A stretch of DNA of 64,000 nucleotides from Candidatus Marinacidobacterium sp. (GCA_965220965.1 CBDCRI010000001.1:160001-224000), one strand, 5' to 3'; shown: positions 3,450-31,590, counted from the first letter of the stretch. Notes: generated from the letters alone by a model not told the origin. Made by a program: numbers and translations.

Positions 3450-3970
3450 GCTGGCCCCGCCCGCGCGGGGATGGACCCGGCAAATTACTTTACCGCGGTC
3501 AGTGGAGTGACTTGGCCCCGCCCTCGCGGGGATGGACCCAGGGACCGTTATGCAGTCGATCAATCGAAGGACTTGGCCCCGCCCGCGCGGGGATGGCCCC
3601 TTGTCGAGCAGGAAGGGATGAAGGTGATCGTGGTTGGCCCCGCCTGCGCGGGGATGGGCCGTCGAAGGGAAAGTTTGGTTGCGAACTGATGTCGTTGGCC
3701 CCGCCTGCGCGGGGATGGTCCCGAGTTAATCGAGGGCAGGACGGAAAGTCTTGCGTTGGCCCCGCTTGCGCGGGGGTGGACCCTGAAGATCGGGGCTTGG
3801 GACGATGCCGGCATTGTTGGCCCCGCCCACGCGGGGATGATCCAGATTTGGACCGCGCCGTGCCTGCGGTTTAGCTGACTGGCTGCCCCGCCTGCGCGGG
3901 GATGGGCCTCCATCGATGAACAGGAGCCGACCGTTCCTCGACGCTCGCCCCGCCCAAGCGGGGATGGACC
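3450..3970 (+). CRISPR. type I-E-like CRISPR array 1: 9 repeats (29 nt), 8 spacers (mostly 32 nt)
   Basis: Repeats of consensus GTTGGCCCCGCNNNNGCGGGGATGGACCC at 3450, 3511, 3572, 3633, 3694, 3755, 3816, 3881 and 3942; 61-nt period (one 65). Confidence 0.95.
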
Positions 3971-4887
3971 GATGGCAGGAGTTGGGACGCGATTCGGGTT
4001 TAGGAGGACGCCAATGGGACTGAGCGTTGCACAGTCGGTGGACTCGACGAGCTAACCCGCACGGACATGGAGGACCGCGAGTTGCCCGACGAGGCGGCTT
4101 CGGCGCTTCCATCCTGAAAGGCCATCGACTGGGTCTGGCGAACCCCAGCCCTTCCGTGGCGACACGAGTCGAGACGAACGGTGTCCAAGACACCGTGGGG
4201 CCGCCCGTACACCGCCATGCTCGTAGAGATCGACTGCGTGGAGACCAAGCCTAGGAAGCCCATCCGCGAGCAACAGGCGCCTGCGCCCTAGCGGCGGCCG
4301 GCGCTCCAGCTGATTGCTCACGAGAAAAAGCATGGTCATTCACGAGCAGCCAATCCGCCTGCCACTCGCATTTCACGGAACTGGCATTCGCAGTCGCCTC
4401 GAGGCCATCGTCCTGGGCTCCGACGCCGTGCGGGAGGAGGTTCGCGAGTCCCATGGGCGCTGATGCAGTCTCACGACTTGTCGGATTGATTGCCTAGAGC
4501 GGCTCTTTTGCCAGAGCCCCTCGAAATGGCAACAAACGCGCACGCGAAGCGAGAGGTACTCCCCGTGAGGCCGGGCTTTCCGCGGAACCTCGCTAGGAAC
4601 AAGTTGGGGCAACATTGCGCCCCACCTTCGGCTGCGAATCCACATCAAGGCTAAGCCGTGCTCTTACATTGGCACGTCTTCCGGGGAAAGTAGGTGTTGC
4701 CTAGTGCAACTGGCTAACGCTGCCACAACACCAAAAGAAGGCTCCTTCTAGCCCAAACCTTTGCCGCGCCTCAACACCCCATGTCTTGAAGCATCCCTTC
4801 ATTCACGGTTCCCGAGGACACGACGCGCGGGGGAGGACGCCACCCTTCAGATTGCACCTTCCCCCACCTTGATTCGCGAGCGCCCCT

Positions 4888-6696
4888 CTACCCAAGAGGG
4901 CCTCCACAATTCGGGTAAGAGGGACACCCCGACCCGCCACCGCACGTAACAGCTATCTTGGGGTAACCCGAGCAGCTTTCACTATTGCCACAAGGAGACT
5001 GACAGGTGGTCAACGTGTGGTTGTAGAAACAAGTAGTCCCTTGTGGAGTATCCCAAACTTCCGAGAAAGTCTGATAGTCAAGTTCTGGGTCGCAAGAGGG
5101 GGGAGGTTTCGGTTCTGGGCACTTTCCGCAGTTGAGAGTCTTGGAGCAGTTCCGTGAGAGGCCCACGTTGGCGCAGGAGGCCTGGGCGCACTGCCCGGTT
5201 CCGGGCGTGCAAGTCCGGTGCTCCTTTCCGTACTTAAGCGTGGGGCCACAGTCATCCGGTGCGCAGGCGGCCGAGCAGCCCCCCCAGTCGCTGATCGTTC
5301 GCTTCGTGCCGCAGTTCTTGGTGCAGGACGCTTGGAGCGGGTACCCCGCGCAGGTCTGGTGCGCGTAGCTGCCGGTCCCGGGCGTGCAGGTCCGGTACTT
5401 CTTTCCCGACTGGGCCCCGCACTTCCCGGTGCACGAGGCTTGGCAAGCCCCGTATTCGGAGACGTGGCGCGGCGCGCACCCGCGCGACTCGGTTTCCGTC
5501 CCCGCCGGGGGGGTGCAGCCCGCGCCGCAGGTGGCGCCGCTGCAGGTCCGACTGCAGGTCCTTGACTGCTGGCCGTTCGAGCAGCCCGACCAAGCCCCGC
5601 AGGACCATCCGGACAAAGTTCCCTTTTGCCCGGGATTCGTCCCCGTGGCCAGCCGGCTGGTCCCCGGGCAGCTGGCAGGTGACGCGGAGCGCGTTTGCGT
5701 GAACTTCGTGCCCTTACAGTAGGAGCTCGTTGACGGAGCCCAGCTCCCGTAGCTGCACGTGCAGTCCGTCCTGGTGCCAGGCGTGGAGGTGGCCGGCTTC
5801 TGACCCGTCGGCGTGCAGCCCGACGGGCTCTCCCACACGGAGCGGCTCGCCGACTGGGGCGGGCAGATGGTCGACGGGTCGGGGCTCCACGCCGAGGTCT
5901 GCCAGCGGCAGGGCGGGGTGGAGCAGTTCTGCTTCGTGCCGGGCATTGTCGTCGCCGGCTTCGCCGCGCTCGGCGTGCAGCCGGCGGCGCTCGAGCGCAC
6001 CGTGCGGGTGGCGGAGTACTGCGGGCAGAGCGTCGCCGGGTTCGGGTTCCAGGCGCCCACCTGCCAGTCGCACGCGCAGGGGCAGCTCACGCTGCACGCC
6101 CGCGACAGAACCTGCCCGTCGCAGGTCTCCGAGGCGTGGCTGCCGGTCCCCGGCGTGCAGGTCCGCGTCTGCTGGCCCTGCGCCGTGCCGCAGTTGTCCT
6201 GCGCCCCGCAGGAGGCGGAGCACGCCCCCCAGGGGCCGAGCGAGCGCGGCGCGTTCGGGGCCGCGGTGACCGGCGTGATCGAGACCAGGCCGCGGGCCTC
6301 CCAGCGCTTCACCTCCTCCCACCGGGGCGGCCAGTCGATGCGGCCCTGGTTGGCGGGCGGGCTCTCCACGTCGCTGCTCTCGCCGCCGAACAGCAGCGGC
6401 CGGCCGGCGTCGCCCCAGGCCGGCAGCGCCTTTATCTCCAGCTCGGTGCCGATGGGGTACGGCGGCATCGGGTAGTCGGCGGTGGCGCGCAGGTGCAGGT
6501 CGCCGCCGGCCCCGAAGCGCATGATCTTCGGGTCGGTGAGGCAGTGCGAGGAGCCCGCCGGACCCTCCTGCGCGACAATGAAGCCCCCCAGGCTGCCCGG
6601 CGGGCACTCGTTCTCCTGGGCCAGCGCCAAGGAGGCCGACAGCAAGGCGGCCACCGCCGCGAGCAGGCCAAGCTTCCGGTGCGAACTCCTGTGCAT
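4888..6696 (-). CDS. secreted Cys/Trp-rich protein with thrombospondin type-1-like repeats
   Basis: GGAGG RBS then signal peptide MHRSSHRKLGLLAAVAALLSASLALAQ; repeats WGACSASCG...GQQTRTC, WSGCSNGQQSRTC, SDWGGCSAAC and WxPxPxTxCP units. Confidence 0.8.
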   Translation of the reverse strand: MHRSSHRKLGLLAAVAALLSASLALAQENECPPGSLGGFIVAQEGPAGSSHCLTDPKIMRFGAGGDLHLRATADYPMPPYPIGTELEIKALPAWGDAGRPLLFGGESSDVESPPANQGRIDWPPRWEEVKRWEARGLVSITPVTAAPNAPRSLGPWGACSASCGAQDNCGTAQGQQTRTCTPGTGSHASETCDGQVLSRACSVSCPCACDWQVGAWNPNPATLCPQYSATRTVRSSAAGCTPSAAKPATTMPGTKQNCSTPPCRWQTSAWSPDPSTICPPQSASRSVWESPSGCTPTGQKPATSTPGTRTDCTCSYGSWAPSTSSYCKGTKFTQTRSASPASCPGTSRLATGTNPGQKGTLSGWSCGAWSGCSNGQQSRTCSRTCSGATCGAGCTPPAGTETESRGCAPRHVSEYGACQASCTGKCGAQSGKKYRTCTPGTGSYAHQTCAGYPLQASCTKNCGTKRTISDWGGCSAACAPDDCGPTLKYGKEHRTCTPGTGQCAQASCANVGLSRNCSKTLNCGKCPEPKPPPSCDPELDYQTFSEVWDTPQGTTCFYNHTLTTCQSPCGNSESCSGYPKIAVTCGGGSGCPSYPNCGGPLG

Positions 6697-6889
6697 GCCG
6701 CCTCCCTCGCGCGATGCGCCCGCCGCCAGCCGGGAAACGGCTCCGCAGACGCTTTCGAATGGAATCCTTCTATGCTGGCCAGCAGTATAGCAACGGGCAC
6801 CTTGCCCGCCACCGCGGAGGCTGCGCGTCCGCCGGGGCCGTGCCGGCCGGCCACGGGTCGCGGCGCCCAAGCGGAAAGCCCCTCCCGCT

Positions 6890-7055: not shown

Positions 7056-7068
7056 ATGGTATAATGCA
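7056..7068 (+). promoter_or_regulatory. extended -10 promoter ATGGTATAATGCA
   Basis: TG-n-TATAAT upstream of the RNA ligase; the same 13-mer (R at position 11) recurs at 40985-40997(-), 58920-58932 and 63506-63518. Confidence 0.7.
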
Positions 7069-7103
7069 TGTGTCACGCATTGGAGCAACGGAGTCCCCCC
7101 CCC

Positions 7104-8159
7104 ATGTCCGCATTCGAGGCCCGCATCCACGCCCTCGCCGTGGAGCCCCACCCCAACGCCGACCGGCTCGAGCTGGCCGCGGTCGGCGGCTATCGCTGCG
7201 TGGTCGGCAAGGGCCAGTTCGCCGACGGCGACCTGGCGGCCTACATCCCGGAGGGCGCGCTGTGCCCGGACTGGCTCATCGCGGACCTCGGCCTGGAGGG
7301 CAAGCTGGCCGGCCCGGAGGCCAACCGCGTCAAGGCATTGGTCCTGCGCGGGGCGCTCTCCGAAGGGCTGGTGTACCCGGTGCGGGAGGGACGCCTGCGC
7401 GGCCGTGCGGTGGCGGTCGGCGACGACGTGACCGAGCTGCTCGAGATCGAGAAGTACGTGCCGCCCATCCCGGTGCACATGTCGGGCCAAGTCAGGGCCG
7501 TCCACGGGGCCACGCTCAAGTACGACATTGAGCCCTACAAGAGGCACCTGGGCGTCCTGCGGGAGGGGGAGCCGGTGTGCATCACCGAAAAGCTGCACGG
7601 CACCTGGTGCTGCCTGGGCGTCCATCCCGCGCACGGCCCCATCGTCACCTCCAAGGGGCTGTCCGGCCGCGGGCTGGCCTTCGACCTTGACGAAGCGGCG
7701 GGCAACGCCGACAACCTGTACGTCAAGGCATGGCGTCGGCTGGAGGGGAGCATCCGAGCGCTCGCCGACGAGTTCGGCGCCCCCGTCCACGTTCTGGGCG
7801 AGGTCTTCGGCAAGGGCGTTCAGGACCTGCACTACGGGCGCCAGGCGCCCGACTTCGCGGCGTTCGACGTCCACGTGGGCGAGCCGGGGGAGGGGCGCTA
7901 CCTCGACGCCGCGGAGTTCCGCCCAGCGGTCGCCCGCCACGGCCTGGAGCCCGTCCCCGTCCTCCACGAAGGGCCTTTCTCGCATGACGCGCTCATGGCG
8001 TGCGTGGACGGGGGCACCAGCTTCGGCGCCGGGCACATCCGCGAGGGGGCGGTGGTCCGCCCGGCGGCGGAGCGGCGGGATCCGGCGATCGGGCGCGTGC
8101 TGCTCAAGTGCACGTCCGGCGGCTACCTGACCCGCCGCGGGGGCACCGAGCACGCCTAG
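7104..8159 (+). CDS. ATP-dependent RNA ligase, Rnl2/DRB0094-like family
   Basis: N-terminal HPNADRLELA domain; ligase motifs I TEKLHGT, III LGEVFG, IIIa FAAFDV, IV REGAVVRP and V LLKCTS. Confidence 0.9.
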   Translation: MSAFEARIHALAVEPHPNADRLELAAVGGYRCVVGKGQFADGDLAAYIPEGALCPDWLIADLGLEGKLAGPEANRVKALVLRGALSEGLVYPVREGRLRGRAVAVGDDVTELLEIEKYVPPIPVHMSGQVRAVHGATLKYDIEPYKRHLGVLREGEPVCITEKLHGTWCCLGVHPAHGPIVTSKGLSGRGLAFDLDEAAGNADNLYVKAWRRLEGSIRALADEFGAPVHVLGEVFGKGVQDLHYGRQAPDFAAFDVHVGEPGEGRYLDAAEFRPAVARHGLEPVPVLHEGPFSHDALMACVDGGTSFGAGHIREGAVVRPAAERRDPAIGRVLLKCTSGGYLTRRGGTEHA

Positions 8160-8256
8160 GTACCCTGCCCCCGAGCGGTCCCAACCAACCCGGGCGCGAG
8201 TTCCTATATTCGGCCCGAAGCCCTCCGCCCGGGAGGGCGCGCTTGCAGGAGGGGCC

Positions 8257-9285
8257 ATGGAAGACAGCCATGTCGAATCGAGCGAGGTCAAGGACGCGCG
8301 CGTCAGGCACGCGAAGGCGGCGGCCGCCGCGCACGAGGCGCTGCTCGATGCCATTCACGCCGCGTTCGGCGACAGTCCCCCGCATGGCCGGCTATGCGTG
8401 CATTGGGACGGGTTCGGCGACCATGGCTGCGTTGACGCCGTCGACTGGGGGTTCCCGGACCCCGCCGAGGAGGCCGACGCTGAGTCCCTCACTTGCATCA
8501 TCGACGAAAAGGCGGAAAGGCCGCCGTCTTCGGTGACGGAGGCGGCCATGAATTTCGTCCACAGGTTGATCGACTTTGATCGGTGGCTTCGGGACATGGA
8601 GGTCGGCGCAGGCGGCGACATCGCCTTCATCCTCGACTGCGTCTCGGGCCGCGTCTCCGTGAGTGCCCGGCGCTGGGTGGTCAAGCTTAGAGCGCTCGAC
8701 CCCCGCGCCGAGCGTAGCTGGTTTCTGCCAGTTAAAAAGCTCGAAGGAGAGGGTTTCGAGGAGCCTCGGCTCGGGCTCGACAGTGGCGGCGCGCAAGCCA
8801 TCGCCCGCCTCGAGCACGGGGTGTCAAAATCCCTGCGCGCAGCCATCGGGGGCCGCTGGGCGCACCGCCGGTGGGACAGGCTTGCGTGGGATGGCCTCGG
8901 GGTGACCTACGTTTTCGGCAGGATGGGCGACAAACTCTTCATCCACAGTTTGCACTTCCATCCACCGGCAGTCGGGATCAGAGGGCGGGGGCCGGCGTTG
9001 GAGGACTTGGTGATGGACGTAATCGATGAGTGGGGCATCGACCGGGTCTGCACTGACCCGGCCGCACGGTCAGGCGATGACCGGCCCCGCAGCGAGAACT
9101 CCTTTGCGACCATCGGCGTTCGGCTTCCGATCAACGCGAAGGCCCGCTCCGCGGCCGTCACCATCACGCGCGACATCAAGAAAGTGGTGTATCAGCTGGA
9201 GCAGTTCTACACCCGCGACCCGCTGCCGTCCTCGTCCTACTACCGCCCGAGGGTGGCTAGCGCCCCGGCGGGCCCTGGCCTCTGA
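8257..9285 (+). CDS. acidic GxGDxG-family protein (DUF6878-like), paralogue 1
   Basis: LCVHWDGFGDHG motif; AGGAGG RBS; clear similarity to neighbours. Confidence 0.75.
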   Translation: MEDSHVESSEVKDARVRHAKAAAAAHEALLDAIHAAFGDSPPHGRLCVHWDGFGDHGCVDAVDWGFPDPAEEADAESLTCIIDEKAERPPSSVTEAAMNFVHRLIDFDRWLRDMEVGAGGDIAFILDCVSGRVSVSARRWVVKLRALDPRAERSWFLPVKKLEGEGFEEPRLGLDSGGAQAIARLEHGVSKSLRAAIGGRWAHRRWDRLAWDGLGVTYVFGRMGDKLFIHSLHFHPPAVGIRGRGPALEDLVMDVIDEWGIDRVCTDPAARSGDDRPRSENSFATIGVRLPINAKARSAAVTITRDIKKVVYQLEQFYTRDPLPSSSYYRPRVASAPAGPGL

Positions 9286-9554
9286 AGCCAGCTGCGGCAA
9301 CCGCGGGGGGAGCGTCCCGCCGGATCGGTGTGGACGGCTGGGAACCCGGCATTTCCGAGCTGCCCGACGCAGGGCGGCGGCCTTGACAAGGCGTTTTCTC
9401 CGGCGCCAGATCGACGCGGACGGCCAGCCAGGGGTTCGGCTTCGCGGCGCTGGAGCCTCAAGCGGGAGCGCCGGGGAAGGGCGCCTCCCTCGACGGCGCC
9501 GACTTCCGCGCAGGGGCCGCCCCACGGCGCAGTGGCACGATCCGGCGGCCACCT

Positions 9555-9668
9555 GACACGCCGCGGTGCGCCGGGCCGGCCTGACGCACGCGGGGCCAAC
9601 CCACGGCGGCTTCCTATAATCGACGCGATGTCCCCCCGAAGGGGCGGGCGCCTTTGCAGGAGGGGATT
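9555..9668 (+). repeat. repeated promoter/leader unit (copy at about 10787-10910, diverged copy at about 8180-8256)
   Basis: Shared CGCGGGGCCAACCCACGGCGGCTTYCTATAATCGACGC...CCCCGAAGGGG...GCGCCTTTGCAGGAGGGGA. Confidence 0.85.
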
Positions 9669-10697
9669 GTGGACGACGGCCAGGCCGCAGCGAGAGAAAC
9701 GAGGAGCGCGCGCGCGAAGGAGGCGGACGACGCGCACAAGGCGCTGCTGGATGCCATTGGCGCCACCTACCGGGGCGGCGCCCCGCATGAACGGCTTTGC
9801 GTGCATTGGGACGGGTTCGGCGACCAAGGCTGGGTTGACGCCGTCGCCTGGGGGGTCCCGGACCCCGCCGAGGAGGCCGGCGCAGCGCCGCTCACGTGCA
9901 TCATCGACGAGAAGGCGGAGAGGCCGCCGCCTTCGGTGACGGAGGCGGCCACGAATTTCGCCTACCTGGCGATGTCCGCGCACCCGGCGGAGCTTAAGGG
10001 CTTGTGCGACAACGACGGCGGCGACGTCTCCCTCGTCCTCGACTGCGCCTCGGGCCGCGCCACCGTGAATTCGCGCCGCCGGGAGAGGCAGCTAAAGGCG
10101 CTCGACCCCAACGCCGCCCGCGCCGCCAGCCTGCCCCTCAACGCGCTCGACGGCACGCCCGGCGAGGCGCGCGCGCTGGGGCTTTTCAGCGGCGGCGCGC
10201 AAGCGGTCGCGGACCTCGGGCGCGGGCTGTCACGCACCCTGCGCTCCCTCGTCCCAGCCTCAAAGCAGGCCCTCGCGGAGGATGTGGCCCGGGAGGGCAT
10301 CGCGGTCAGGTACCTGTTCAGCGCGGAGAGCGGCAGAGGCGTCATCGAGGAGATCATGACCCCCTCCCCGCTGAGGGGTGACGAGAATGACGGGGACTTC
10401 CAGTGGTGGAGTTCCCACTGGTGCGACCTGGTGGACGAACTGATGGATAAGGGGGGCATCGACGACGTCTGCACCGGCCTCGCCGACCGGGCCGGCCACG
10501 AATGGACCCGAAAGGAAGGCTGCCTTTTGTCCATCGAGATGCGCTTTCCGATCGACCCGGAAGCCGACGGCGCGGCCGTCGCCATCACGCGCGAGGTCGT
10601 GAAGTGGGAGAGCTCGTTCGAGGACATCGCCACCTTCGACATGCCGCCGCGCGACCGACCGCGGGCGGCCAGCTCCCCGGACGGCCCTGGCCTGTGA
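9669..10697 (+). CDS. acidic GxGDxG-family protein (DUF6878-like), paralogue 2
   Basis: GTG start after AGGAGGGG; HWDGFGDQG...CDNDGGDVSLVLDCASG and a second related domain. Confidence 0.75.
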   Translation: MDDGQAAARETRSARAKEADDAHKALLDAIGATYRGGAPHERLCVHWDGFGDQGWVDAVAWGVPDPAEEAGAAPLTCIIDEKAERPPPSVTEAATNFAYLAMSAHPAELKGLCDNDGGDVSLVLDCASGRATVNSRRRERQLKALDPNAARAASLPLNALDGTPGEARALGLFSGGAQAVADLGRGLSRTLRSLVPASKQALAEDVAREGIAVRYLFSAESGRGVIEEIMTPSPLRGDENDGDFQWWSSHWCDLVDELMDKGGIDDVCTGLADRAGHEWTRKEGCLLSIEMRFPIDPEADGAAVAITREVVKWESSFEDIATFDMPPRDRPRAASSPDGPGL

Positions 10698-10910
10698 CAT
10701 CCGCCGCTGCAACCGCAGGCGGCTGGGCGGGGCGGACGGGCCGGCGACTGGCCGCGTGCCGCCCAAGCGCACGCGCGGCGGTCTCCTGACCCGCCGCGGG
10801 GGCGCCGCGACCGCCTGACGCCCGCGACGCCGCGCGGGGCCAACCCACGGCGGCTTTCTATAATCGACGCAACGCCCCCGAAGGGGAGGGCGCCTTTGCA
10901 GGAGGGGAAC

Positions 10911-11951
10911 GTGGACGACAGCCAGACCGCAGCAAGCGCGGCCAGCGACCGGCGCGCCGAGGAGGCGGCGGAGGCCGCGCGCGACGCGCTGCTCGATGCC
11001 ATTCGCGCCGCTTTCGGCAACCACCCCCCGCATGAGCGGCTTTGCGTCCATTGGGACGGGTTCGGCGACAATGGGGCGGTTGACCTAGCCGCCTGGGGCC
11101 GCGCGGATCCCGCCGAGGATGCCGACCCCAAGACGCTCACCTGCCACCTTTGCGAAGAGCCCGAGCCCATGCCGCCCTCGGTGGAGGAGCGGGCGATGGA
11201 CTTCGCCCTCCTTGCGATCGATGCGCACGAGGAGCTCCACCACTTCGGGGACGGCGACGGCGGCGTCATCGACGTCATCCTCGACTGCCGCTCAGGCCGG
11301 GCCACCGTGGATGCCCAGCGCAGGGAGGCCCGGCTCCAAGTGCCGGACACCAGCGCCATCAGGAACGCAAGGCTGCCCCTGGACGCCCCGGAGGCGCCGA
11401 ACGGCGAGTGGGCCAAGCTCGGGCTCAGCGACCGCGGCGCAAAAGCCATCAGGAGCTTTGCGCGCGGGGTGTCCAGCGACCTGCGCGCCGGCGTCGAGGC
11501 CGTCAGGGCGGGGCTCTGGGAGGAGCTTGCCGAAGAGCGCATCGTGGTGCGGTACTGCTTCAACGGTGAGGGCGACGAAGGCATGCTGGAGGACGTCGAG
11601 GCCCTCCCCACGCCAAGGTTCTGGGCGGATGATGGGCTCCGTCAGCAGTGGCATGCCGAGTGGGCGGGCATGGTGTTCCGGCGCATCGGGAAGATGGGCA
11701 TCGACGACGTCTGCACCGGCCTCGCCGACCGGGCCGGCTGGGACTGGAGCAGCAACCACGGCGGAGCCCTGTGGATCGAGCTGCGGCTGCCGCTGGACGC
11801 GAGCGCCGAGGAGGCGGCCGTCGAGATCGCCCGGGTGGTCCAGATCAGGACGTACCCCTTGGTGGACGACCTGACCTTTGACATGTCGCCCGGCCCCCCG
11901 CCGCAACCCCAGGAGGAGCGCCATGCCGGACCGGCTTCCGGACCGCAGTGA
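10911..11951 (+). CDS. acidic GxGDxG-family protein (DUF6878-like), paralogue 3
   Basis: GTG start; HWDGFGDNG and a second motif FNGEGDEG. Confidence 0.75.
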   Translation: MDDSQTAASAASDRRAEEAAEAARDALLDAIRAAFGNHPPHERLCVHWDGFGDNGAVDLAAWGRADPAEDADPKTLTCHLCEEPEPMPPSVEERAMDFALLAIDAHEELHHFGDGDGGVIDVILDCRSGRATVDAQRREARLQVPDTSAIRNARLPLDAPEAPNGEWAKLGLSDRGAKAIRSFARGVSSDLRAGVEAVRAGLWEELAEERIVVRYCFNGEGDEGMLEDVEALPTPRFWADDGLRQQWHAEWAGMVFRRIGKMGIDDVCTGLADRAGWDWSSNHGGALWIELRLPLDASAEEAAVEIARVVQIRTYPLVDDLTFDMSPGPPPQPQEERHAGPASGPQ

Positions 11952-12468
11952 CAGCGAGCTTGCCGAGCTGAATGACGTCCGGCGGCGGCTTTGCGCCGCA
12001 GTGCTCGATGAGGCCGCTCCGCTCGGCCTCGACCACGCCGAGGCGCGCCTGGTCCTGGAATGGTCGGGCCACGGCGACTCGGGCTGCCTCGAGAAGGCCT
12101 ACTTCCAGCGACGCTCCGGCGGCGATGGGCCGGCGGGGCCGTGGGCGGACCTGGGCAGCATCGACCTCTCCGAGACCACGGCGTGCATGGCCGACGATTT
12201 CCTGACCCGCCTTGTCTGCCACTTCCCCGAAACGGAAGGTCTTGAGATGCACGACGGCGGCGGCCTCAGGGCCGCCCTCGACCTGCGCGACGGGACCTGC
12301 GAGGCCACCGCGGGATTCGGCTTGTGCGAGTGGGACGTTGCGGCCATCGACGCAATCGAGTTCGACGGGCGCTTGCCCCCCGATCCCGAGATCGCCGCGG
12401 CCTTCCGGCGGGCGGAGCGCGCCAAGCCGGGGCGAGAAGGCCCGCGCCCGCCCGGCGTCGCGACCTGA
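11923..12468 (+). CDS. acidic GxGDxG-family protein, single-domain paralogue 4
   Basis: AGGAGGAG RBS; LEWSGHGDSG; C-terminal EFDGRLPPDPEIAAAF shared with paralogues 5 and 6. Confidence 0.72.
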   Translation: MPDRLPDRSDSELAELNDVRRRLCAAVLDEAAPLGLDHAEARLVLEWSGHGDSGCLEKAYFQRRSGGDGPAGPWADLGSIDLSETTACMADDFLTRLVCHFPETEGLEMHDGGGLRAALDLRDGTCEATAGFGLCEWDVAAIDAIEFDGRLPPDPEIAAAFRRAERAKPGREGPRPPGVAT

Positions 12469-12480
12469 CCGGAGACGAGC

Positions 12481-13491: not shown

Positions 13492-13560
13492 ATGCAAGCG
13501 AGGCCGGAGCCGCAAGCCGCTTGCCGCTCCGGCGCAGAGCAGGGCCGACAGGAGACAGCC

Positions 13561-15835: not shown

Positions 15836-15868
15836 CGACATGAGGCCGGCACGCGCGGTCGTGCGGCG

Positions 15869-17093: not shown

Positions 17094-17307
17094 GTGCGTT
17101 CTCCCTAGTCGTCCTGCATCTTGAAGCGCCCATTGTAAGGCCTGCGGGAAGCGCGTTGGGGGAAGTTCCTGCCTTCCCGGATCGCGCGGGCGCTGCTGGC
17201 TTGCCGCTTGACGCCCCGTTCGCGAAGTCGCCCCCGTCCGCGCCGGCCCGGAGGCCGACGCGCTTTCTACAATCGCCGCATGACAGACAAGAGCGGGGCC
17301 AGGGCGG

Positions 17308-20298: not shown

Positions 20299-20351
20299 GC
20301 CGGCCCTAGCCGCGTCCGGCGCGCGGCCTGGCAAACGCGCCCGGACCCGGG

Positions 20352-20549
20352 CTAGGGCTTGCGGGGCTTGGCCCGCTGCCGCCGCCGGTGGCGCTCCACG
20401 ATGTGCGGATGGGTCTCGCTGGCGGGGCGCATCCGCTTGAAGTCCTCGGCGTCGAGCTCGCGGGCGTCGGGATCGGCTTCGATCCCCGCCCGAATGCGCT
20501 CCGCCTCCTCAGGCGTCGGCCTCACGGTTCCCGGTTTCAGCTTGGGCAT
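20352..20549 (-). CDS. BrnA-like antitoxin N-terminal part lacking the RHH domain
   Basis: MPKLKPGTVRPTPEEAERIRAGIEADPDARELDAEDFKRMRP resembles BrnA-family N-termini; GGAAGG RBS. Confidence 0.55.
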   Translation of the reverse strand: MPKLKPGTVRPTPEEAERIRAGIEADPDARELDAEDFKRMRPASETHPHIVERHRRRQRAKPRKP

Positions 20550-20561
20550 GGTCCTTCCCTC

Positions 20562-21458: not shown

Positions 21459-21517
21459 GTCCCCAGCCTCCCGGGGGGCCGGCGGGGCGGGGGCGGAGCC
21501 GCCCCCCGCGGGCGGCC

Positions 21518-22654
21518 TCACGGCGACGCCTCCACGGCCATAGGGGCTTCGAGCCTGGCGGGCCTTGGCGCCAGCACCTCCGGAAAGCGCCCGGCGAGGT
21601 GCCGGGCCAGCGCGATGGACACCGGCGGGGCCACGGCGTTGCCGAACTGCTGGTAGGCCTGCGTGTCCGACACGGGTATCCGGAAGCGCGGCGCCCCGGG
21701 CCGGTCGAACCCCTGCAGGCGGGCGCACTCCCTAGGCGTCAGGCGCCTCGGCGGCCGGCCCTCCTGCCGGACCAGTATCTCCGCCCCGTCCTTGTGGTAG
21801 CGGGCGGACAGCGTGCGCGCCACGTCCGCGGGGCCCACCAGCCCGAAGCCGAAGCCGTTGCCCTGCTCAGCGTGGCGCTCGGCATGGCCCCTCAGGGCCT
21901 TCCAGGTGGCGGGGCGGAGCGTGTAGCGGGCCGCCACCGCCGCGTCAGGCCCCTCGGTGTAGGGCGGCTCCGCCGCCTCCGAGCCGTCCTGCGGATTCAG
22001 GACGGCTCCCAAGGTCGGCTGCGGGCCCGACAGGGGCGGCACGAAGAGGTCGTCGAAGCGGAAGGCCGCGCCCTCACGGGCGCCGACGATGAACAGCCGC
22101 TCGCGGCTCTGCGGCACCCAGTGCCGGGCGTTGATGAGGTGCACGTTCACCTGGTAGCCCAAGTCCTCGGCCAAGGTCTGGTAGATCACCCTGAAGGTGC
22201 GCCCGCCGTCGTGGGCGCGCAGGTTCCTGACGTTCTCGAGCACGAACAGGGCTGGGCGGCGATGGGCGATGATCCGCGCCACGTCGAAGAAGAGCGTGCC
22301 GCGGCTGGCGTCCAGGAAGCCGTGCCGGCGCCCCATCGAGTTGGCCTTCGACACGCCCGCGGTCGAGAAGGGCTGGCAGGGGAACCCGGCGAGCAGCACG
22401 TCGTGCGCGGGAACCTCCTCCTCCGGCACCGCCGCGACGTCGTGGGCCCAGCGGTGCGGCCCGGGGTGGTTGGCCTCGTAGGTGGCCCGGGCGAAGGGGT
22501 CCCTCTCGGCCGCCCACACGCACCGGCCGCCCAAGGCGTCGAACCCGGCCCGCAGGCCGCCGATCCCGGCGAACAGGTCGATGTGGTCAAAGGCGGCGCC
22601 GCCGCGCCGTCCGGCGGGTTCCTGCGCCAAGGGCCGGCCCTGCAAGCTGCACAT
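21518..22654 (-). CDS. dcm: DNA cytosine methyltransferase, Dcm/M.EcoRII-like
   Basis: IDLFAGIGG, GFPCQPFS, GTLFFDV, LENVRNL.HDGGRTF, ARTLSARYHKDGAEIL, RIPVSDTQAYQQFGN. Confidence 0.9.
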   Translation of the reverse strand: MCSLQGRPLAQEPAGRRGGAAFDHIDLFAGIGGLRAGFDALGGRCVWAAERDPFARATYEANHPGPHRWAHDVAAVPEEEVPAHDVLLAGFPCQPFSTAGVSKANSMGRRHGFLDASRGTLFFDVARIIAHRRPALFVLENVRNLRAHDGGRTFRVIYQTLAEDLGYQVNVHLINARHWVPQSRERLFIVGAREGAAFRFDDLFVPPLSGPQPTLGAVLNPQDGSEAAEPPYTEGPDAAVAARYTLRPATWKALRGHAERHAEQGNGFGFGLVGPADVARTLSARYHKDGAEILVRQEGRPPRRLTPRECARLQGFDRPGAPRFRIPVSDTQAYQQFGNAVAPPVSIALARHLAGRFPEVLAPRPARLEAPMAVEASP

Positions 22655-22759
22655 GGCCTCGATTCTACCATCCGGGGCGCCGGACGGACCCGTGGCGGGC
22701 GCGGCCGGGCGGGGGAGGGCGGCGTTGAGCTTCCCGGGGGCCGGCCCTACCATGGCCGC

Positions 22760-23053
22760 ATGCCCAAGTCCCCGAAAGGCGCCGCTCCGCGCCCGCTCAG
22801 CTTCGAAGGCCCCGCCGCGATGCCGGCGCGCACGCGGGCGGCCATCCAGGCCGAGTGCGCCTCCCGCCTGGCGGCCCTGTCCGCCGTGCTTGGTCCGGAG
22901 CGCGCCGCCGAGCTCTTTGAGCGTGCCGAGGCCATGCCCCCGCCAGCCAGGCAGGAGGCCCCGCGGGAGACGCCGGGCCAGCGGGCGCTGAGGCTCATGG
23001 AGACCCGTGCCGGCCGGGCCGAGCTCGCGAAGCTTACGTGGGAGACCCTGTGA
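22760..23053 (+). CDS. small protein, putative antitoxin of the downstream PIN-like gene (97 aa)
   Basis: ATG at 22760; the stop overlaps the next start as GTGA (translational coupling). Confidence 0.6.
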   Translation: MPKSPKGAAPRPLSFEGPAAMPARTRAAIQAECASRLAALSAVLGPERAAELFERAEAMPPPARQEAPRETPGQRALRLMETRAGRAELAKLTWETL

Positions 23054-23943
23054 GGCCCGTCGCGCCGGCCCGCGCCACCGCCGACACGGAGCTGCTCGTC
23101 GACCCGACCTGCCGGCAGTTCACGTCGGCCCTTTGGGAGCTTGCCGGCGGGCGCCTTGCCGTGACGCCCACGGTCGCCGACGAGCTCCCGGGCAACGCGA
23201 GGGGATCAGAGGGCCGGCACTGGAACAGAGTGCTCTCCCGCGAGATGGAGGCCTCGAACATCCATTACGACGCGGAGACCTATCGTGACATCATCGCAGC
23301 AACCAAGGACGCGGCCGGGGAATGGATGCTTCGGGAGCTGGCCGGCGGGGGCTCCGGCGCCCTCGTTGCGGTGCGCGCCCTAGCCCCGGACGCGTACGCG
23401 CTGGCCCGGGAGGTGGCCGCGCGCATCCCCAAGCAGTGCTTCCGCCGGCCCAGCCAAGCCAACCAGCGCCGCGACGCCGAGGTGATCGGCGAGTCGGTCG
23501 CTTTGGGGTTCGCCCTGCTGTCCACGCAGAACCTCGGCAGCATCAAGGACGAGCGGGCCAATGAATGGCTCATCCGCGAGGGTTACGTGGAGGGTCCGCT
23601 GATCCAAACCATTGCCAACGCGCTGCGCGCGCTGAACCCCGAGACCAGCCACGAGGAGGCGGCGCTGCGCGCCGTTCTTGGCGCGTCGCTGCCGAACGAG
23701 AATCGCGGCCTTGAGCGCGACCTTCGAGCGGTCACGGCCTTCATCGAACGGCTTGGGGCGAGCCACGCGAAGGCCTGCGCGGTTTGGGCGGAGGACTGCT
23801 TGGAGCACCTTGGAAGCCTGGCCGACACGGTCCGCGCCGTGCGCCGGGACCTTCCAGTCCGGACAAGGGCGATGGAGGACTCCCGCCTGCGTGCTACGCG
23901 CTCCGCAGCCGTTAGGGCGGGCTTTGCCGGGCACTCCGGCTGA
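23050..23943 (+). CDS. PIN-domain-like protein
   Basis: ADTELL...VTPTVADEL...RDAEVIGES...LSTQN; paralogue of 326-1186. Confidence 0.6.
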   Translation: MRPVAPARATADTELLVDPTCRQFTSALWELAGGRLAVTPTVADELPGNARGSEGRHWNRVLSREMEASNIHYDAETYRDIIAATKDAAGEWMLRELAGGGSGALVAVRALAPDAYALAREVAARIPKQCFRRPSQANQRRDAEVIGESVALGFALLSTQNLGSIKDERANEWLIREGYVEGPLIQTIANALRALNPETSHEEAALRAVLGASLPNENRGLERDLRAVTAFIERLGASHAKACAVWAEDCLEHLGSLADTVRAVRRDLPVRTRAMEDSRLRATRSAAVRAGFAGHSG

Positions 23944-24249
23944 GCCGAAGGGCCTGCAGCGCCCCGCCGTCGCGCCCTAGGGCCAGCGGGGGAGGGGGGC
24001 CAGGTCGCGCGGGGGCAGCGGGTCAGGGCCGGGAAGCCAAGCGCGCGCTCCTGCGGACCCTCCTCACAGCGACGGGCCGGCCGGAGCCCCCCGGCACGGC
24101 GCCGTGAAGCGCGCCGCCTGTCCTGGGCCGGTTCCCAACCGCAGCGGGGACAAGGATGTCGGGCATTGCGCCCGACGGGCGCCAGCGCTCCGGCACGGTG
24201 CGCCTTGGCGGGGCCGGATGCCCTTGGTGATGGACTTGGCGTGCCCTCC

Positions 24250-25887
24250 TCAGGGGCGCGGGAGTGACGACTGCGACCGTTCACGCGCGGGCGCTGGCGC
24301 ATCGGCATCGCTGTCAGGCGCCTGCCGGCGATCCGCTCCAAGAGGAAGGGCAAGCTGCCCGGCCACGAACTCGGCGAAGGCGGAGATGTTCTGGCCGACG
24401 CTGGCCTCCTCTAGAGCTGCCATGTAAGGCCGGCGGAGCTCCACCCGGATGGTGGTCCAAGGGTAGCCGCCTGACGCCAGCATGGCGTTCATCAGGAATC
24501 GCGCCATGCGTCCGTTGCCGTCGGGAAAGGGGTGGGCGTAGCCGAGCATCCAGTGCCCCACCACTGCGCGCACGGCAGGCTCCGGCTCATGCTCCAGCAG
24601 CTCAAAAAGGGCTTCCATGCAGTCCGGTAGAAGCTCCGCTCGGGGCGGGACGTGCCTCGATCCGCGAATGAACACGGGCCGGTTTCGGTAGCCGGCCAGG
24701 GCTGACCGGTCGTACAGCCCAGCTGCGGCGAAAGGCTGGAACAGCTGCAGGAACCACTGCCCGTGCGCATTGCGGAACAGGGTGCCGGGATCCGCGCCGT
24801 TCAGCACGGCCTCCACCGACTCCCGCACGGCCTGAAACGCCTGCCAGTAGCCGCGAGCGGCCAGCGCGTCCTGCTGCTGGCGGTCTTCAGCGACCTTCTG
24901 CGGATTCCAATTCCCCGACCTCACCTGATCGATCAACTTGGGGGTGACGCGGTAGCCTTCGATGGACAGGGAGTGGTAGGCGTCTTCCCGGTATGCCGCG
25001 GCCACGCCGTCGAGATACTGCTGCGCCAACGGGCCCGACGGCAATCCCGGCGCCTCCGGAAAGGCCGACAGGACGGGCTCGCGCGCCCTGTTCCACAGCA
25101 CGCGCAGGCGGTGCATGACGGACGACCCGGAACGCAGGGCGATCCGCCCGGCACGCTCCGGGGCCGAGCCTGCCGCCTTGAACGGATCCGCCTCCCGGAA
25201 ACTGTCGTGCCCGGTTTCCCGCATTGCGCTGCGAATCTCGTCCGCGAAGGCGTCGCGTCCAATGTGGCGGCACGCGCCTGCCAGCCGTCCGGCGACCTTC
25301 GAACAGCTCCCAGCCAGCAATCGACTCACGAGGGGCGCGGCGTGGCGCACGCTCTCGAGCGCCGTGCGCGCCTCGACCGGGCGGTCGCGGAAGAAGGCCG
25401 CAGGGACTCGGACCAACGCCGCCTCGATCGTGAAAATGCGCAGGCCGTTCCTTTCGCAAAGGTCCGCGGCTGGCGGCTCCTCAGAGGACTCCAGGTCGAA
25501 CAGCGACGTCGCGAACGGCAGCCGCACGTTGTTGTTTCGCCCTTCCGGGGCCCGCACGATGACCTGGGACGGGACACTGGTGTCCTCAGCGTGGAGCCGC
25601 AACGAGATTTCGGGGGACAGATGCCAGCGGGCGCCGAAGCGGTGCGAGCTGTAGCGGGCGCAGAACTCCCAGAACGCCGCGTGCCACGCCGTGGTGTCGT
25701 CGGGTGGCGCGTCCGGCCTCGAAAGCATCAACCAGCCTTTGATGACGGGTTGAAGGTAGCCGTTGCGGAGGAGTCGTTCGCGATGTTCGCGGCGGAACTG
25801 CCGGGATCGAAAGACGTGCCTTCCATCGCCTTGCAGTTCGGACAGCGCCTCCAGCGCATCAGCCAGCTTGTGGTTGGGAGAGACCAT
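24250..25887 (-). CDS. Fic-domain protein with long N-terminal extension
   Basis: Intact Fic motif HPFPDGNGRMAR; AYHSLSIEG. Confidence 0.9.
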   Translation of the reverse strand: MVSPNHKLADALEALSELQGDGRHVFRSRQFRREHRERLLRNGYLQPVIKGWLMLSRPDAPPDDTTAWHAAFWEFCARYSSHRFGARWHLSPEISLRLHAEDTSVPSQVIVRAPEGRNNNVRLPFATSLFDLESSEEPPAADLCERNGLRIFTIEAALVRVPAAFFRDRPVEARTALESVRHAAPLVSRLLAGSCSKVAGRLAGACRHIGRDAFADEIRSAMRETGHDSFREADPFKAAGSAPERAGRIALRSGSSVMHRLRVLWNRAREPVLSAFPEAPGLPSGPLAQQYLDGVAAAYREDAYHSLSIEGYRVTPKLIDQVRSGNWNPQKVAEDRQQQDALAARGYWQAFQAVRESVEAVLNGADPGTLFRNAHGQWFLQLFQPFAAAGLYDRSALAGYRNRPVFIRGSRHVPPRAELLPDCMEALFELLEHEPEPAVRAVVGHWMLGYAHPFPDGNGRMARFLMNAMLASGGYPWTTIRVELRRPYMAALEEASVGQNISAFAEFVAGQLALPLGADRRQAPDSDADAPAPARERSQSSLPRP

Positions 25888-25906
25888 GTCCTAGGCGCCC
25901 TCGGCC

Positions 25907-25949
25907 GTTGCTTGCGCAAGTATATCGTGTGTTGCTCTTGCAAGTACAT
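25907..25949. promoter_or_regulatory. imperfect direct repeat with palindromic cores between the divergent fic and hipA genes
   Basis: GTTGCTTGCGCAAGTATAT (25907-25925) and GTTGCTCTTGCAAGTACAT (25931-25949). Confidence 0.45.
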
Positions 25950-26096
25950 TCTGCATTCGCGCAATGGCGCGACACTGGCCGTCAAGTGGAACAACACGGC
26001 CTTTCCACCCAGAATAGGCAACGGCTTTCTGATTTTTGGAGAGGCCCTCGTAGGATGGCTGGCTCTTACGGACGGCGAGGTGAACGACTGAACGCG

Positions 26097-27458
26097 ATGA
26101 AAATTGAGCTGCGCCTGCACGGCAGGCGGGCCTGCGCCTTGGAGGCGGACCCGCGGCTGCCGGAGGGCGTTTTCGCGCGCGGGAAGGCCATGGCGTGGCT
26201 GTCGGCGGGCTGGGACGGGACCGAGGCCCACGACACCGCCCGGCGCTGGCTGCTGGGGGCGCTGCCGGAGAACGGCACCCTGCCGGCTTGGATGGGCGAG
26301 GCCGAGGCCCGCTTCCGGGCGCTCGGCGTGGCGGGGGACATCCGCCGGCCGGAGTCCCTGCTGTGGGTATATCGTAGCGCCGAGTTTCCGGGGGCGCTGC
26401 AGGTGCTGCGCGAGGGGGAACGCGCCGCCAAGCCGCTTCCGGTTGCTTCGTCGGCCTACCAGTCCCTGTCCGAGACTGACGTGGGCGAAATGCTCAGCAA
26501 GGTCGTGCGCACAGCCTTGGCCCTGAAGGGGCGGCCGGAAGTCGCGCCGGAGCGGGCGCGCTCCTCGCTGTCCGGCGTGCGCCCCAAGGTGTCGCTTACG
26601 GCTGCCGGGGACGGCCTCGGAGGCGGTTGGCTGCAGGGCCAGACGGGGCAGCTGAACACGTGGATCGTCAAGGTGGAGAATGACATGGAGCTGCCGGGCG
26701 AGGCCGGCGTCGAGAGCCTCTGCCAAAGGGCGCTCGCCCTGGCCGGCATGCCAGCCTCCCGGACCTTGGCACGGGTGGTGGACGGGCGGCAGTGCGTGTT
26801 GAGCGAGCGCTCGGACCGCAGGATGGAGGGCGGCTGCGTGCTGGCGGCGCACCAAGAGGAATTCCGCCAAGCCTGCGACGCCGGCACCGAGCGCTTCCCC
26901 GCCGGGCTGGGCCGCGAAGCTGAGTGGCCGGCCGCCTACCGGCTGCTCGGCCGAGCGAGCGCCGACCCCGACGGCGAGGCCGACCGCCTGACGCGCCTGC
27001 TGGCCGCATCGGCCATGATCTGCCACGCCGACCTGCACCGCGGCAACCTCGGCTACCGGGTCTCGGCGCCCGGCGACGGCCCGAAGCGGGTCAGCCTGGC
27101 CCCCGCCTACGACGTTTCGACCGCCATCGGCACCAAGCTCAGCAAGGACCTCACCTTTGGCATCGCCGGGCAGCGAAGTCCGGCCGAGATCGGAGCGCCC
27201 CAGTGGAAGGCCCACGCCGCGCGCTGCGGGATTGACGCGGAGCGGACTCTGGCGGCTGTGGCTGAAGTCGCCGCGGCGCTGCCGGAAGCCTTCGCGCAGG
27301 CTAGGATCGAGGCGTCCGCGGAGGACGTGAACGCGGACCAGGCCGCCGTCGACCGGCGGGCGGAGCGGACGCTGGCCTATTTGGAGAATCGGCGAGCAGA
27401 CTTCGAACGCTGCATGCGGGGCCGCAGCCGTCCCGCCACGCCGGGGCCGGGGGGCTAG
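26097..27458 (+). CDS. hipA: HipA-family kinase toxin
   Basis: SLSGVRPK, WIVK, ICHADLHRGN and LAPAYD motifs; ATG 26097 (MKIELRLHG). Confidence 0.85.
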   Translation: MKIELRLHGRRACALEADPRLPEGVFARGKAMAWLSAGWDGTEAHDTARRWLLGALPENGTLPAWMGEAEARFRALGVAGDIRRPESLLWVYRSAEFPGALQVLREGERAAKPLPVASSAYQSLSETDVGEMLSKVVRTALALKGRPEVAPERARSSLSGVRPKVSLTAAGDGLGGGWLQGQTGQLNTWIVKVENDMELPGEAGVESLCQRALALAGMPASRTLARVVDGRQCVLSERSDRRMEGGCVLAAHQEEFRQACDAGTERFPAGLGREAEWPAAYRLLGRASADPDGEADRLTRLLAASAMICHADLHRGNLGYRVSAPGDGPKRVSLAPAYDVSTAIGTKLSKDLTFGIAGQRSPAEIGAPQWKAHAARCGIDAERTLAAVAEVAAALPEAFAQARIEASAEDVNADQAAVDRRAERTLAYLENRRADFERCMRGRSRPATPGPGG

Positions 27459-29834: not shown

Positions 29835-30191
29835 CGGCCGGCGGCGGCTTCGCGGGCCGCGGGCGCCCGGTGCCGCCGCCCGCGCTTCGCAAGGCCGCCG
29901 GAATGCCCGCAAAACGCCCCGGATACGCACATCATGCACGACAACTGCAATTGTCGCGCATCATTAAGAGGGCGGAAACCGACCCGTCCCGCCGCCGAGG
30001 AACGTCGCCGAAAAGCGGCTTCCGGGGCCTTCGCCCAAGTGCCGAACGCGGCCTTCGAACGTGCGGCATGCCGTTCAGTCCAAATGTCGGAAACGGCCGC
30101 AACTGCCTGGAAAGGCAAGGATTCGAGCCGCCATCCGGCGCCGGTCCTGCCGGGACCGGCTCGCAGGGGCGGCTCCTTGGCAAAGCTGGCC

Positions 30192-30623
30192 ATGGCCATT
30201 GAGTCCACGCTGCAGGGCGGGCTGCTGCTGGCCGCGGGCGCGCTGTTCGGCGATTGCCCCGACAGTCCCTTCGCGGTCGTTGTCTCGCAGGGCGCGGGCG
30301 AGCCGGCCAGCGTCGGCAGCTATGCCGTTCGGCTGTACGACGCCCGGGATCCGGAGTGGCCGCTCGATGCGTTCCTCGGCGGCTTGGTGCGCCCCCGCGA
30401 CGGCGCGGTCGAGTCGCTGGAGTTCGGCGACGTGGACGACGACGGAGAAGCCGAGGCGGTGGTGGCCGTGCGCTCCATGGGTTCAGGGAGGCATCTAGAC
30501 GCGGAGGCCTTCAAGGCCTGCCGCGGATCGCTCAGGCACGTCAGGTCCACCAGCGGGCTCCCGCCCGGTGCGGACCCCGTCAAGGCCCTCAAATCCTCCC
30601 CAGCTGGCATGGCGCGCCCATGA
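30192..30623 (+). CDS. pliI: PliI-family inhibitor of invertebrate-type lysozyme
   Basis: EPASVGSYAVRLY...RDG...RSMGSG motifs; hydrophobic N-terminus. Confidence 0.78.
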   Translation: MAIESTLQGGLLLAAGALFGDCPDSPFAVVVSQGAGEPASVGSYAVRLYDARDPEWPLDAFLGGLVRPRDGAVESLEFGDVDDDGEAEAVVAVRSMGSGRHLDAEAFKACRGSLRHVRSTSGLPPGADPVKALKSSPAGMARP

Positions 30624-30659
30624 AGGCATGGGGTGGCGCGTGGAACGCGCCCTGGCAGG

Positions 30660-30768
30660 GGTTGTTGTAAACTGCTTGCACCGCGCCGCCCGCGCGTCCT
30701 TGCCAAGAGGTTGAATAGACACGAAAGAAACGACAAATCGCCGCTGTTTCATTGGCTTAAGGCTTAGG
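30660..30768 (+). promoter_or_regulatory. CRISPR leader of array 2
   Basis: Lower GC; degenerate IHF-like TTTCATTGGCTTA at 30747-30759; the two leader-proximal repeats are identical. Confidence 0.6.
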
Positions 30769-31590
30769 GGCGGCCCCGCTTGCGCGGGGATGAACCCTTA
30801 TACTCAGGCAACTTTGATTAGTGCGTGATGGCGGCCCCGCTTGCGCGGGGATGAACCCGATGAATATGCGCCGATTACGCCGAACAGGGCGGCTGCCCCG
30901 CCAGCGCGGGGATGGACCTTCGCATTGACAATCGGGATGCGTATCCGGTAGGACTGCCCCGCCTGAGCGGGGATGGCCCCCCGTAAAGCAGAGCTTACGG
31001 ACACCATGCCATGACTGCCCCGCCAGCGCGGGGATGGGCCCAGGCAGCTACTATAGTGCGGCAGCATGAACAGGGCGGCCCCGCCTGCGCGGGGATGGAC
31101 CCATTGTCGCATTGATCGAAGGGAGTCGTGCGGCGACGGCCCCGCCAGCGCGGGGATGGACCCTCCATGCCTAGTCTCCTTGCGATGCATCAAAGGGCGG
31201 CTCCGCCAGCGCGGGGATTGACCCACATGGTTTGAGCTGCTCGAGTGGCGCGAGCCGGCGGCCCCGCCTGCGCGGGGATGGACCCTTTTTAGTGTGGTCG
31301 TGTGCAACCGATTCTGAGGCTGCCCCGCCTGCGCGGGGATGGCCCCCCGAAAATCAGGGCTTGCGGAAACCATGCCATGACTGCCCCGCCTGAGCGGGGA
31401 TGGACCCGTTTTGGAAGCACCCACGGGACATCTGAGCATGGCGGCCCCGCCGGCGCGGGGATGCACCCTTGATGGCGGCGTCATCGAGCTCCGAGGCAAT
31501 AACCGCCCCGCCAGCGCGGGGATGGAGCGACTGACGCTTAGTTGGGCTCAATTGCCTTTGCGGCTGCCCCGCCACTGCGGGGACGGGCCC
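30769..31590 (+). CRISPR. type I-E-like CRISPR array 2: 14 repeats (29 nt), 13 spacers (32 nt)
   Basis: G(G/A)C(G/T)GCCCCGCNNNNGCGGGGATGGACCC-like repeats at an exact 61-nt period from 30769 to 31562. Confidence 0.96.

Follow-up and report, generated by a model that had tools for sequence, protein, structure and literature searches.

Diverged repeats with a conserved hairpin in the type I-E CRISPR arrays of an effector-only Cascade locus of Candidatus Marinacidobacterium sp.

Why would the repeats of a CRISPR array differ from one another along its entire length while their hairpin stays the same? The question is raised by two arrays, A1 and A2, in a 64,000-nt stretch of DNA (hereafter the window, C2:160001-224000) from the genome of Candidatus Marinacidobacterium sp. 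(GCA_965220965.1), which consists of two contigs (C1 and C2), 3.25 Mb in all, with 73% G+C. The first-pass annotation of the window had described these arrays as long-lived guide sets that are under selection for Cas6 processing, are not homogenised by acquisition and fit a repurposed, fixed-guide system. Both arrays have leaders and follow a type I-E effector (Cascade) operon, and no type I-E cas1, cas2 or cas3 gene was found in the genome. The explanation that we favour, with a confidence only a little better than even, is that the guides of this effector-only locus are still processed and loaded, and that selection keeps the hairpin and the handle of their repeats. The arrays and their leaders are as follows (positions without a contig name are counted from the first nucleotide of the window).

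3300-3449, plus strand: leader of A1; it contains the motif TGCTGTACACTGG near 3350-3362 and, adjoining repeat 1, a stretch rich in CTTA
3450-3971, plus strand: array A1, nine repeats of 29 nt and eight spacers, six of 32 nt followed by one of 36 and one of 33 nt
30662-30768, plus strand: leader of A2, with the motif TTGTTGTAAACTG at 30662-30674
30769-31590, plus strand: array A2, 14 repeats of 29 nt, starting from 30769 to 31562 in 61-nt steps

The array scan gave 23 repeats, the same number as in the first-pass annotation, and all of them (23/23) show the 29-nt type I-E layout with its 6-bp G+C hairpin, 4-nt loop and 8-nt 3' handle part. Repeat positions are numbered accordingly: 5 nt, CCCCGC (6-11), loop (12-15), GCGGGG (16-21) and 8 nt. 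The repeats of A1 start at 3450, 3511, 3572, 3633, 3694, 3755, 3816, 3881 and 3943. Within the two arrays 19 of the 21 intervals measure 61 nt, so the near-perfect spacing noted earlier holds; the other two, of 65 and 62 nt, are the last two of A1, at its trailer end. Spacers of about 32 nt at a 61-nt period are what is expected of a type I-E array. Such arrays are also expected to have near-identical repeats that degenerate only at the trailer, and this was not found: variation runs throughout A1 and A2, and 21 of the 23 repeats are distinct.

Each leader lies 5' of the first repeat and shares the strand of the cas operon. Those of A1 and A2 can be aligned with the leaders of four distal arrays on the same contig (see below), and all have in common the blocks TTGT(A/G)(C/A/G)ACTG and ..CTTAA.G.ATAGG. 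Promoter scans found no match to the sigma-70 consensus in the leader of either A1 or A2, and a search of the whole window against Rfam returned no family at the gathering score; in A2, only a chance match was seen at E ≤ 1. A search for RNA runs covering window 2700-4200 gave none. The 27 kb between A1 and A2 contain no cas gene among the open reading frames (ORFs) scanned. Directly 5' of the A2 leader, at 29934-30623, lies a gene for a periplasmic lysozyme inhibitor of the PliI family.

Analysis of the repeats site by site, with any base other than the majority base at its position counted as a deviation, showed that the variation is distributed very unevenly. In the 23 repeats of the window only 1/276 stem sites (6-11 and 16-21) deviates, as opposed to 23/92 loop sites (12-15); the counts are 33/92 for positions 1-4, 13/46 for positions 25-26 and 6/23 for position 29. 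Fisher's test gives p = 2.8e-14 for stem versus loop and p = 5.7e-19 for stem versus all non-stem sites, values that overstate the evidence because the repeats share ancestry. The sole stem change is a C>T in the repeat at 31196 (CTCCGC) that gives a U-G pair, leaving 100% of the stem cells in standard pairs. The first-pass annotation was thus correct in describing a constant stem with a single, G-U-keeping exception, and each of the ten loop variants that it listed is present. Its statement that both ends vary is true of positions 1-4, 25-26 and 29 but not of G5 (0/23), ATG at 22-24 (3/69) and CC at 27-28 (1/46), all of which are kept; the second kept block, ATG..CC, falls within the part that becomes the 5' handle of the CRISPR RNA (crRNA). 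The positions that vary here are those that differ between the canonical type I-E repeats of a relative (G009) and of a Streptomyces plasmid, while the stem, ATG and CC are common to the repeats of the window, of G009 and of the plasmid. For 21 of the 23 repeats, folding of the isolated 29-mer at minimum energy gives the canonical 6-bp hairpin; those at 3633 and 3755 fold otherwise when taken alone.

Further repeats of this type are found on the same contig in a remnant array and in four distal arrays:

2769-2920, plus strand: remnant mini-array A0 with three degenerate repeats (2769, 2830 and 2892), found in a fuzzy consensus scan
C2:330554-333763, outside the window: four distal type I-E arrays with 7, 4, 8 and 11 repeats, found in a relaxed scan

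The six arrays with leader motifs contain 53 repeats in total. Among all 56 repeats of A0, A1, A2 and the distal arrays, 6/672 stem sites deviate versus 64/224 loop sites (3/360 and 35/120, respectively, in the 30 distal repeats). Hence stems are not as mutable as loops in this larger sample either, a point on which the first-pass annotation had staked its interpretation. The six stem deviations include two that retain a G-U pair, two in A0 and one in a terminal repeat. Leader motifs are absent from the sequence upstream of A0, and the stems of two of its three repeats are broken (GCGGCG, CCCCCC). Its second unit, taken with its spacer and the repeat that follows, copies units 7-8 of A1 at 84% identity (C2:162831-162920 versus window 3817-3910 in a BLAST comparison). 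A0 sits 530 nt 5' of A1, within a long minus-strand ORF (2564-3430) that looks spurious. The distal arrays have broken stems in two of their 30 repeats and are located 5-8 kb downstream of a type I-D cas2 gene, not beside the type I-E genes.

The arrays also record how they have changed. The distal arrays stand in tandem, share diverged spacers and are separated by whole trailer-plus-leader segments at 84-91% identity, which indicates that entire arrays underwent segmental duplication. In A2, units 4 and 10 (30954-31041 and 31320-31407) are 90%-identical duplicates with spacers that differ at 5/32 bases. Overall, duplicated repeat-spacer-repeat units differ at 10-16% of sites, a divergence at which tens of changes would be expected in 276 stem sites if these were neutral. 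The suggestion of the first-pass annotation that divergence may limit recombinational spacer loss is conjectural, and units were duplicated all the same. Repeats 1 and 2 of A2 are identical, including the derived TTGC loop, and have unrelated spacers, and two of the distal arrays, D3 and D4, start with five and three repeats, respectively, that are identical save at loop position 13. Because of these identical leader-proximal repeats, spacer acquisition appears to have been rare rather than absent. The earlier claim that the repeats are not homogenised by acquisition therefore stands to the extent that no type I-E cas1 or cas2 was found, and goes too far if it is taken to mean that acquisition was wholly lacking. 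Position 13 of the leader-proximal repeats of D3 (C2:332124-332396) reads A, A, T, T and A in turn, which may point to a site of frequent mutation or to recombination among the arrays.

There is virtually no chance that the heterogeneity of the repeats is an artefact of sequencing or assembly, an explanation already contradicted by other arrays of the same assembly, which are near-uniform. In the type I-D array at C2:325889-327278 18/23 repeats are identical and the others degenerate at one end only; in the type I-G array on C1 15/20 are identical. The type I-E array of G009 has 64/67 repeats identical over positions 1-28, and the type I-E arrays of a Streptomyces plasmid are near-uniform except for two loop types. 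A 26,453-nt contig from a public run, with a depth of 78, is identical to window 1-5769, although full independence is lacking, as this run may be the source sample. Three other runs yielded low-depth contigs that cover parts of 822-4976, among them part of A0 (2706-2856) but nothing of A1, and that are identical wherever they fit at full length. The near-uniform I-D, I-G and G009 arrays and the exact 78x contig over window 1-5769 together exclude the error that the first-pass annotation had itself considered.

The gene content of the locus is that of an effector module.

C2:155518-160276, plus strand: operon cas8e-cse2-cas7e-cas5e-cas6e, starting 4.5 kb before the window and followed by the arrays
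1-276, plus strand: 3' end of cas6e, the last gene of this operon (Pfam PF08798, 87 bits)

PADLOC models identify Cas8e (E = 2.4e-115), Cas7e (E = 1.4e-96) and Cas6e (E = 1.5e-25), and Cse2, Cas7e, Cas5e and Cas6e were identified by Pfam and NCBIfam. All five Cascade genes are intact, giving single collinear tblastn matches to the proteins of a relative at 30-56% identity, and the third-position G+C of cas7e and cas8e (0.94-0.96) is host-like. Cas6e retains the conserved His of the LH motif, which we take, from the E. coli and Thermus enzymes, to be the catalytic residue, and also the glycine-rich C-terminal loop; its sequence has no match at E ≤ 0.01 among solved structures. The selection for Cas6 processing proposed in the first-pass annotation fits the site pattern, the broken stems in two of the three repeats of the leaderless A0 and the intact Cas6e with its conserved motifs.

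No type I-E Cas1 or Cas2 was found in the genome: PF09707 has no match at E ≤ 1 and tblastn with Cas1 and Cas2 of G009 none at E ≤ 0.01. The only Cas1 and Cas2 of this genome belong to the type I-D operon (C2:315.7-325.8 kb), 164 kb away. Nor was a type I-E Cas3 found in the genome, where the matches of PF18019 and TIGR01587 are confined to a partial I-G locus, the helicase of type I-D and unrelated helicases, and tblastn with the type I-E Cas3 proteins of three relatives gave only two weak helicase matches, to the I-G gene. The sole HD-bearing Cas3 of the genome is encoded in this partial I-G locus on C1, beside IS21 copies. The position of cas3 is taken here by a gene for a 183-aa protein, on the opposite strand upstream of the operon, and that of cas1-cas2 by genes for a PIN-domain protein and a prepilin peptidase, on the opposite strand downstream. 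With a completeness score of 94%, compared with 89-95% for closed genomes of the same family, the genome is probably near-complete. The partial I-G locus (C1:1450900-1464936) encodes GSU0053 and GSU0054 as well as a Cas3 whose HD domain is C-terminal; two IS21 copies interrupt its arrays and it has no cas1.

The spacers have revealed no targets. In the genome itself, blastn-short searches with 56 spacer and trailer units returned only array-to-array and chance-level matches, the best of the latter being an exact one of 16 nt and, from the trailer unit of A2, one of 21 nt with a single mismatch. Among phages, A2 had no match and A1 had five chance-level ones (E ≥ 0.01); among plasmids, the only matches were to other type I-E arrays, through the repeats. 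The comparison with orthologous arrays envisaged in the first-pass annotation was equally unproductive, as was the target search that it had suggested: the DNA of A1 matched no array in two genomes of the same genus, and in 40 relatives matches were seen only through the repeats. Among 54 other genomes of the order there is no Cas7e homologue closer than 57% identity, and wider scans for related loci gave one 42% match in genome contigs and none in metagenome contigs. The spacers (window 3479-3971 and 30798-31561) average 54% G+C versus 73% for the genome; by eye, those of the active array of G009 look much more G+C-rich.

From the anatomy of the arrays, the pattern of their sites, the gene content and the controls, all of which can be observed directly, we infer selection on the repeats, processing and loading of the guides, and binding without cutting. 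In an active array the first repeat serves as the template for each new one, a turnover that keeps the repeats uniform. Here, with acquisition rare or gone, old units would stay in place and, since no type I-E Cas1-Cas2 supplies new copies to replace them, the repeats would drift, each gathering its own point mutations, while duplication of repeat-spacer-repeat units further changes the arrays. Mutations would be tolerated at positions 1-4, in the tetraloop, at handle positions 25-26 and at position 29, and would be purged from G5, from all six G-C pairs of the stem, from ATG (22-24) and from CC (27-28), i.e. from the Cas6e hairpin with its cleavage site and from the core of the 5' handle, 8 nt long, that Cascade holds. 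The fixed positions match those fixed between type I-E systems of different organisms, as expected from purifying selection on binding and cleavage by Cas6e and on handle binding by Cascade. Most likely, pre-crRNAs are still cut by Cas6e to crRNAs of 61 nt, which would then be loaded into Cascade; in the absence of Cas3, this complex could bind matching DNA without degrading it. The five reading frames are intact, whereas unconstrained repeat sites have diverged by a quarter to a third and duplicates by 10-16%, so the effector genes have probably been under selection as well during this period, over which neutrality would be expected to break a 5-kb coding sequence. A fixed-guide, repurposed role is plausible. 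More tentatively, and in our estimate rather doubtfully, a Cascade devoid of Cas3 and of an adaptation module might keep inherited, slowly mutating guide sets under selection and act, like type IV systems, by binding DNA under RNA guidance without any nuclease, so as to silence or exclude mobile elements.

Several observations weigh against the view that the guides are still used. With no target in the genome itself, in phages or in plasmids, guide use would have no support from the spacers. The spacers of the duplicated A2 units differ in the seed region, including positions 4 and 8, which is unlike strict conservation of guides. The stem pairs show no covariation across the 23 repeats; what speaks for the hairpin is the invariance of related sequences and its likeness to canonical type I-E repeats. 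At 94% completeness an undetected type I-E cas gene stays conceivable. Finally, the identical leader-proximal repeats of D3, D4 and A2 suggest that acquisition worked not very long ago, and cas1, cas2 and cas3 could have been lost recently. This last point leads to a serious rival, which we regard as possible though it would take less than an even bet: the type I-E system was complete until fairly recently, the repeat pattern was laid down under ordinary immunity with very infrequent acquisition, and the arrays and Cascade are now eroding without function. Such early decay would agree with the signs of recent acquisition, with the failure to find a spacer target, with the unrelated genes in the positions of cas3 (the 183-aa gene) and of cas1-cas2 (PIN, prepilin peptidase) and with the broken remnant A0 near A1; besides, the absence of any system closer than 57% Cas7e identity in the 54 other genomes of the order gives no sign of a maintained lineage. 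It is harder to reconcile with five intact Cascade genes that are collinear with their homologues, with the host-like third-position G+C of cas7e and cas8e, and with 21 distinct repeats out of 23 and no broken stem, a state that needs selection across the whole period of divergence; the data put no date on the loss of cas3 relative to that period.

Two other alternatives are less likely still. Ordinary interference, in which the guides serve an effector or nuclease encoded elsewhere (a cas3 in the unassembled part, or the I-D or I-G machinery), seems improbable. The genome, in two contigs and 94% complete, does have a full I-D operon along with a partial I-G locus whose Cas3 has a C-terminal HD domain, and four further type I-E arrays are located downstream of the I-D cas2, at a distance of 5-8 kb. 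However, the I-D and I-G systems have arrays of their own, with different repeats of ~28 and ~37 nt, Cas3 is recruited via the large subunit of its own subtype, and a score of 94% probably means a near-complete genome where closed genomes of the family reach 89-95%. Still less credible is an explanation with no selection at all, in which the palindromic, G+C-only stem is kept by a process of mutation or repair, such as template switching in the hairpin or gene conversion, while the loop and flanks are prone to mutation. The lack of compensatory changes in the stem and the restriction of variation in the leader-proximal repeats of D3 to loop position 13 (A or T), a hint of a hot spot, would suit such a process. 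Yet the stem enjoys no absolute protection, being broken in 2/3 repeats of A0 and 2/30 distal ones, hairpin repair cannot account for the conservation of the non-palindromic G5, ATG (22-24) and CC (27-28), and conversion between repeats would homogenise the loop and flanks too.

How does this locus compare with known systems? With canonical type I-E systems (the E. coli type, as in the loci of the relatives G009 and G020 and of a Myxococcales metagenome-assembled genome) it shares the 29-nt repeat with its CCCCGC-N4-GCGGGG hairpin followed by ATG..CC., the 32-nt spacers and 61-nt period, and the gene order cas8e-cse2-cas7e-cas5e-cas6e with the array next on the same strand. The relatives, however, carry a gene for an 855-940-aa protein in the cas3 position upstream of cas8e, and G009 has cas1- and cas2-sized genes before its array, whereas no type I-E cas3, cas1 or cas2 was found in the present genome. 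Their arrays have 26-104 repeats, and that of G009, the one that was read, is near-uniform as opposed to 21/23 distinct repeats in the window.

Minimal type I-E variants of Streptomyces are reportedly to be credited to a 2018 study by Shmakov et al. These loci of Streptomyces are described as lacking cas1, cas2 and cas3 and as linked to STAND NTPases and small membrane proteins (PMC6452270, PMC12231136). The locus described here shares with them an effector-only module with neither an adaptation module nor cas3, and differs in the STAND link: no STAND NTPase family scored above threshold in the 19 ORFs scanned upstream of the window or in the 37 ORFs scanned within window 326-38913, where the only nSTAND matches were sub-threshold ones inside helicase or ATPase ORFs. 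Cas3-less minimal type I-E loci have thus already been described, and the present locus is of that kind, with an unusually clear footprint of selection.

The type I-E2 and I-E3 variants are described as having a Cas5-HNH fusion in place of Cas3, typically without cas3, and a Cas11 fused to a PD-(D/E)xK nuclease, respectively (PMC12669027, PMC10910872). I-E2 resembles our locus in the absence of cas3, but both variants differ from it in that Cas5e here is collinear with a canonical 238-aa Cas5e (residues 2-229) and that Cse2 aligns likewise with a canonical protein of 190 aa, neither having an inserted domain; Pfam recognizes only the Cas5 and Cse2 domains in these proteins, with no HNH domain in Cas5e. 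Nuclease-free class 1 systems include type IV and the I-F3 and I-B systems of Tn7-like transposons (PMC6452270). These resemble the present locus in lacking an adaptation module and Cas3, in keeping a crRNA-processing, DNA-binding complex and in having non-growing arrays; unlike them, it has six arrays with 53 repeats instead of a minimal array, on a contig without the tested hallmarks of a plasmid. C2 carries 11 tRNA genes and no ParB, and none of the plasmid hallmarks that were checked is present. No tns genes (tnsB, tnsC, tniQ), DinG or transposase families were found among the ORFs scanned beside the locus; no genome-wide search for transposon genes was made. A survey of literature titles and abstract openings turned up no description of degenerate type I-E repeats with a conserved stem, although one may exist.

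Arrays that no longer grow but are still needed record which bases of the repeat Cas6e and Cascade require. The 56 diverged repeats form a natural mutational scan, in which G5, the stem, ATG and CC are kept and the loop and positions 1-4, 25-26 and 29 are free, and on the more tentative view of a nuclease-free DNA binder this pattern would be a direct evolutionary read-out of the bases that Cas6e and Cascade need. Should Cascade be expressed and crRNAs be produced, this would be a naturally occurring type I-E system for DNA binding with no cleavage and no recruited nuclease or NTPase, and it would bear on the persistence of effector-only CRISPR modules; on the tentative view it would be a natural I-E counterpart of CRISPR interference with no added nuclease or STAND partner. 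If crRNAs are not made, it would be a well-documented snapshot of CRISPR-Cas decay.

The gap between A1 and A2 includes genes for the following products:

7068-8159, plus strand: RNA ligase with an OB fold
about 8257-11951 and 11878-14619, plus strand: two sets of tandem paralogues of unknown function, unmatched in Pfam and PADLOC, their DNA copies being 60-92% alike
14609-15835, plus strand, and 21518-22753, minus strand: C5 cytosine methyltransferases
15869-16675: AbiEii
17048-19728, plus strand: further unknown genes, at the end of a plus-strand run (7068-19728) that includes a C5 methyltransferase
20562-21728: tyrosine integrase
24250-25887: Fic protein
25908-27458: HipA-like kinase

The part of this gap from 14609 to 27458 has the content of a mobile element or defence island. 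On the other side, upstream of the Cascade operon (C2:140700-154300), there are genes for an N6 methyltransferase, a DEAD-box helicase, a RecD-like helicase, a GajB-like UvrD helicase, an SspD-like protein with the PAPS-reductase fold and a NUDIX protein, and this neighbourhood, too, looks like a defence island.

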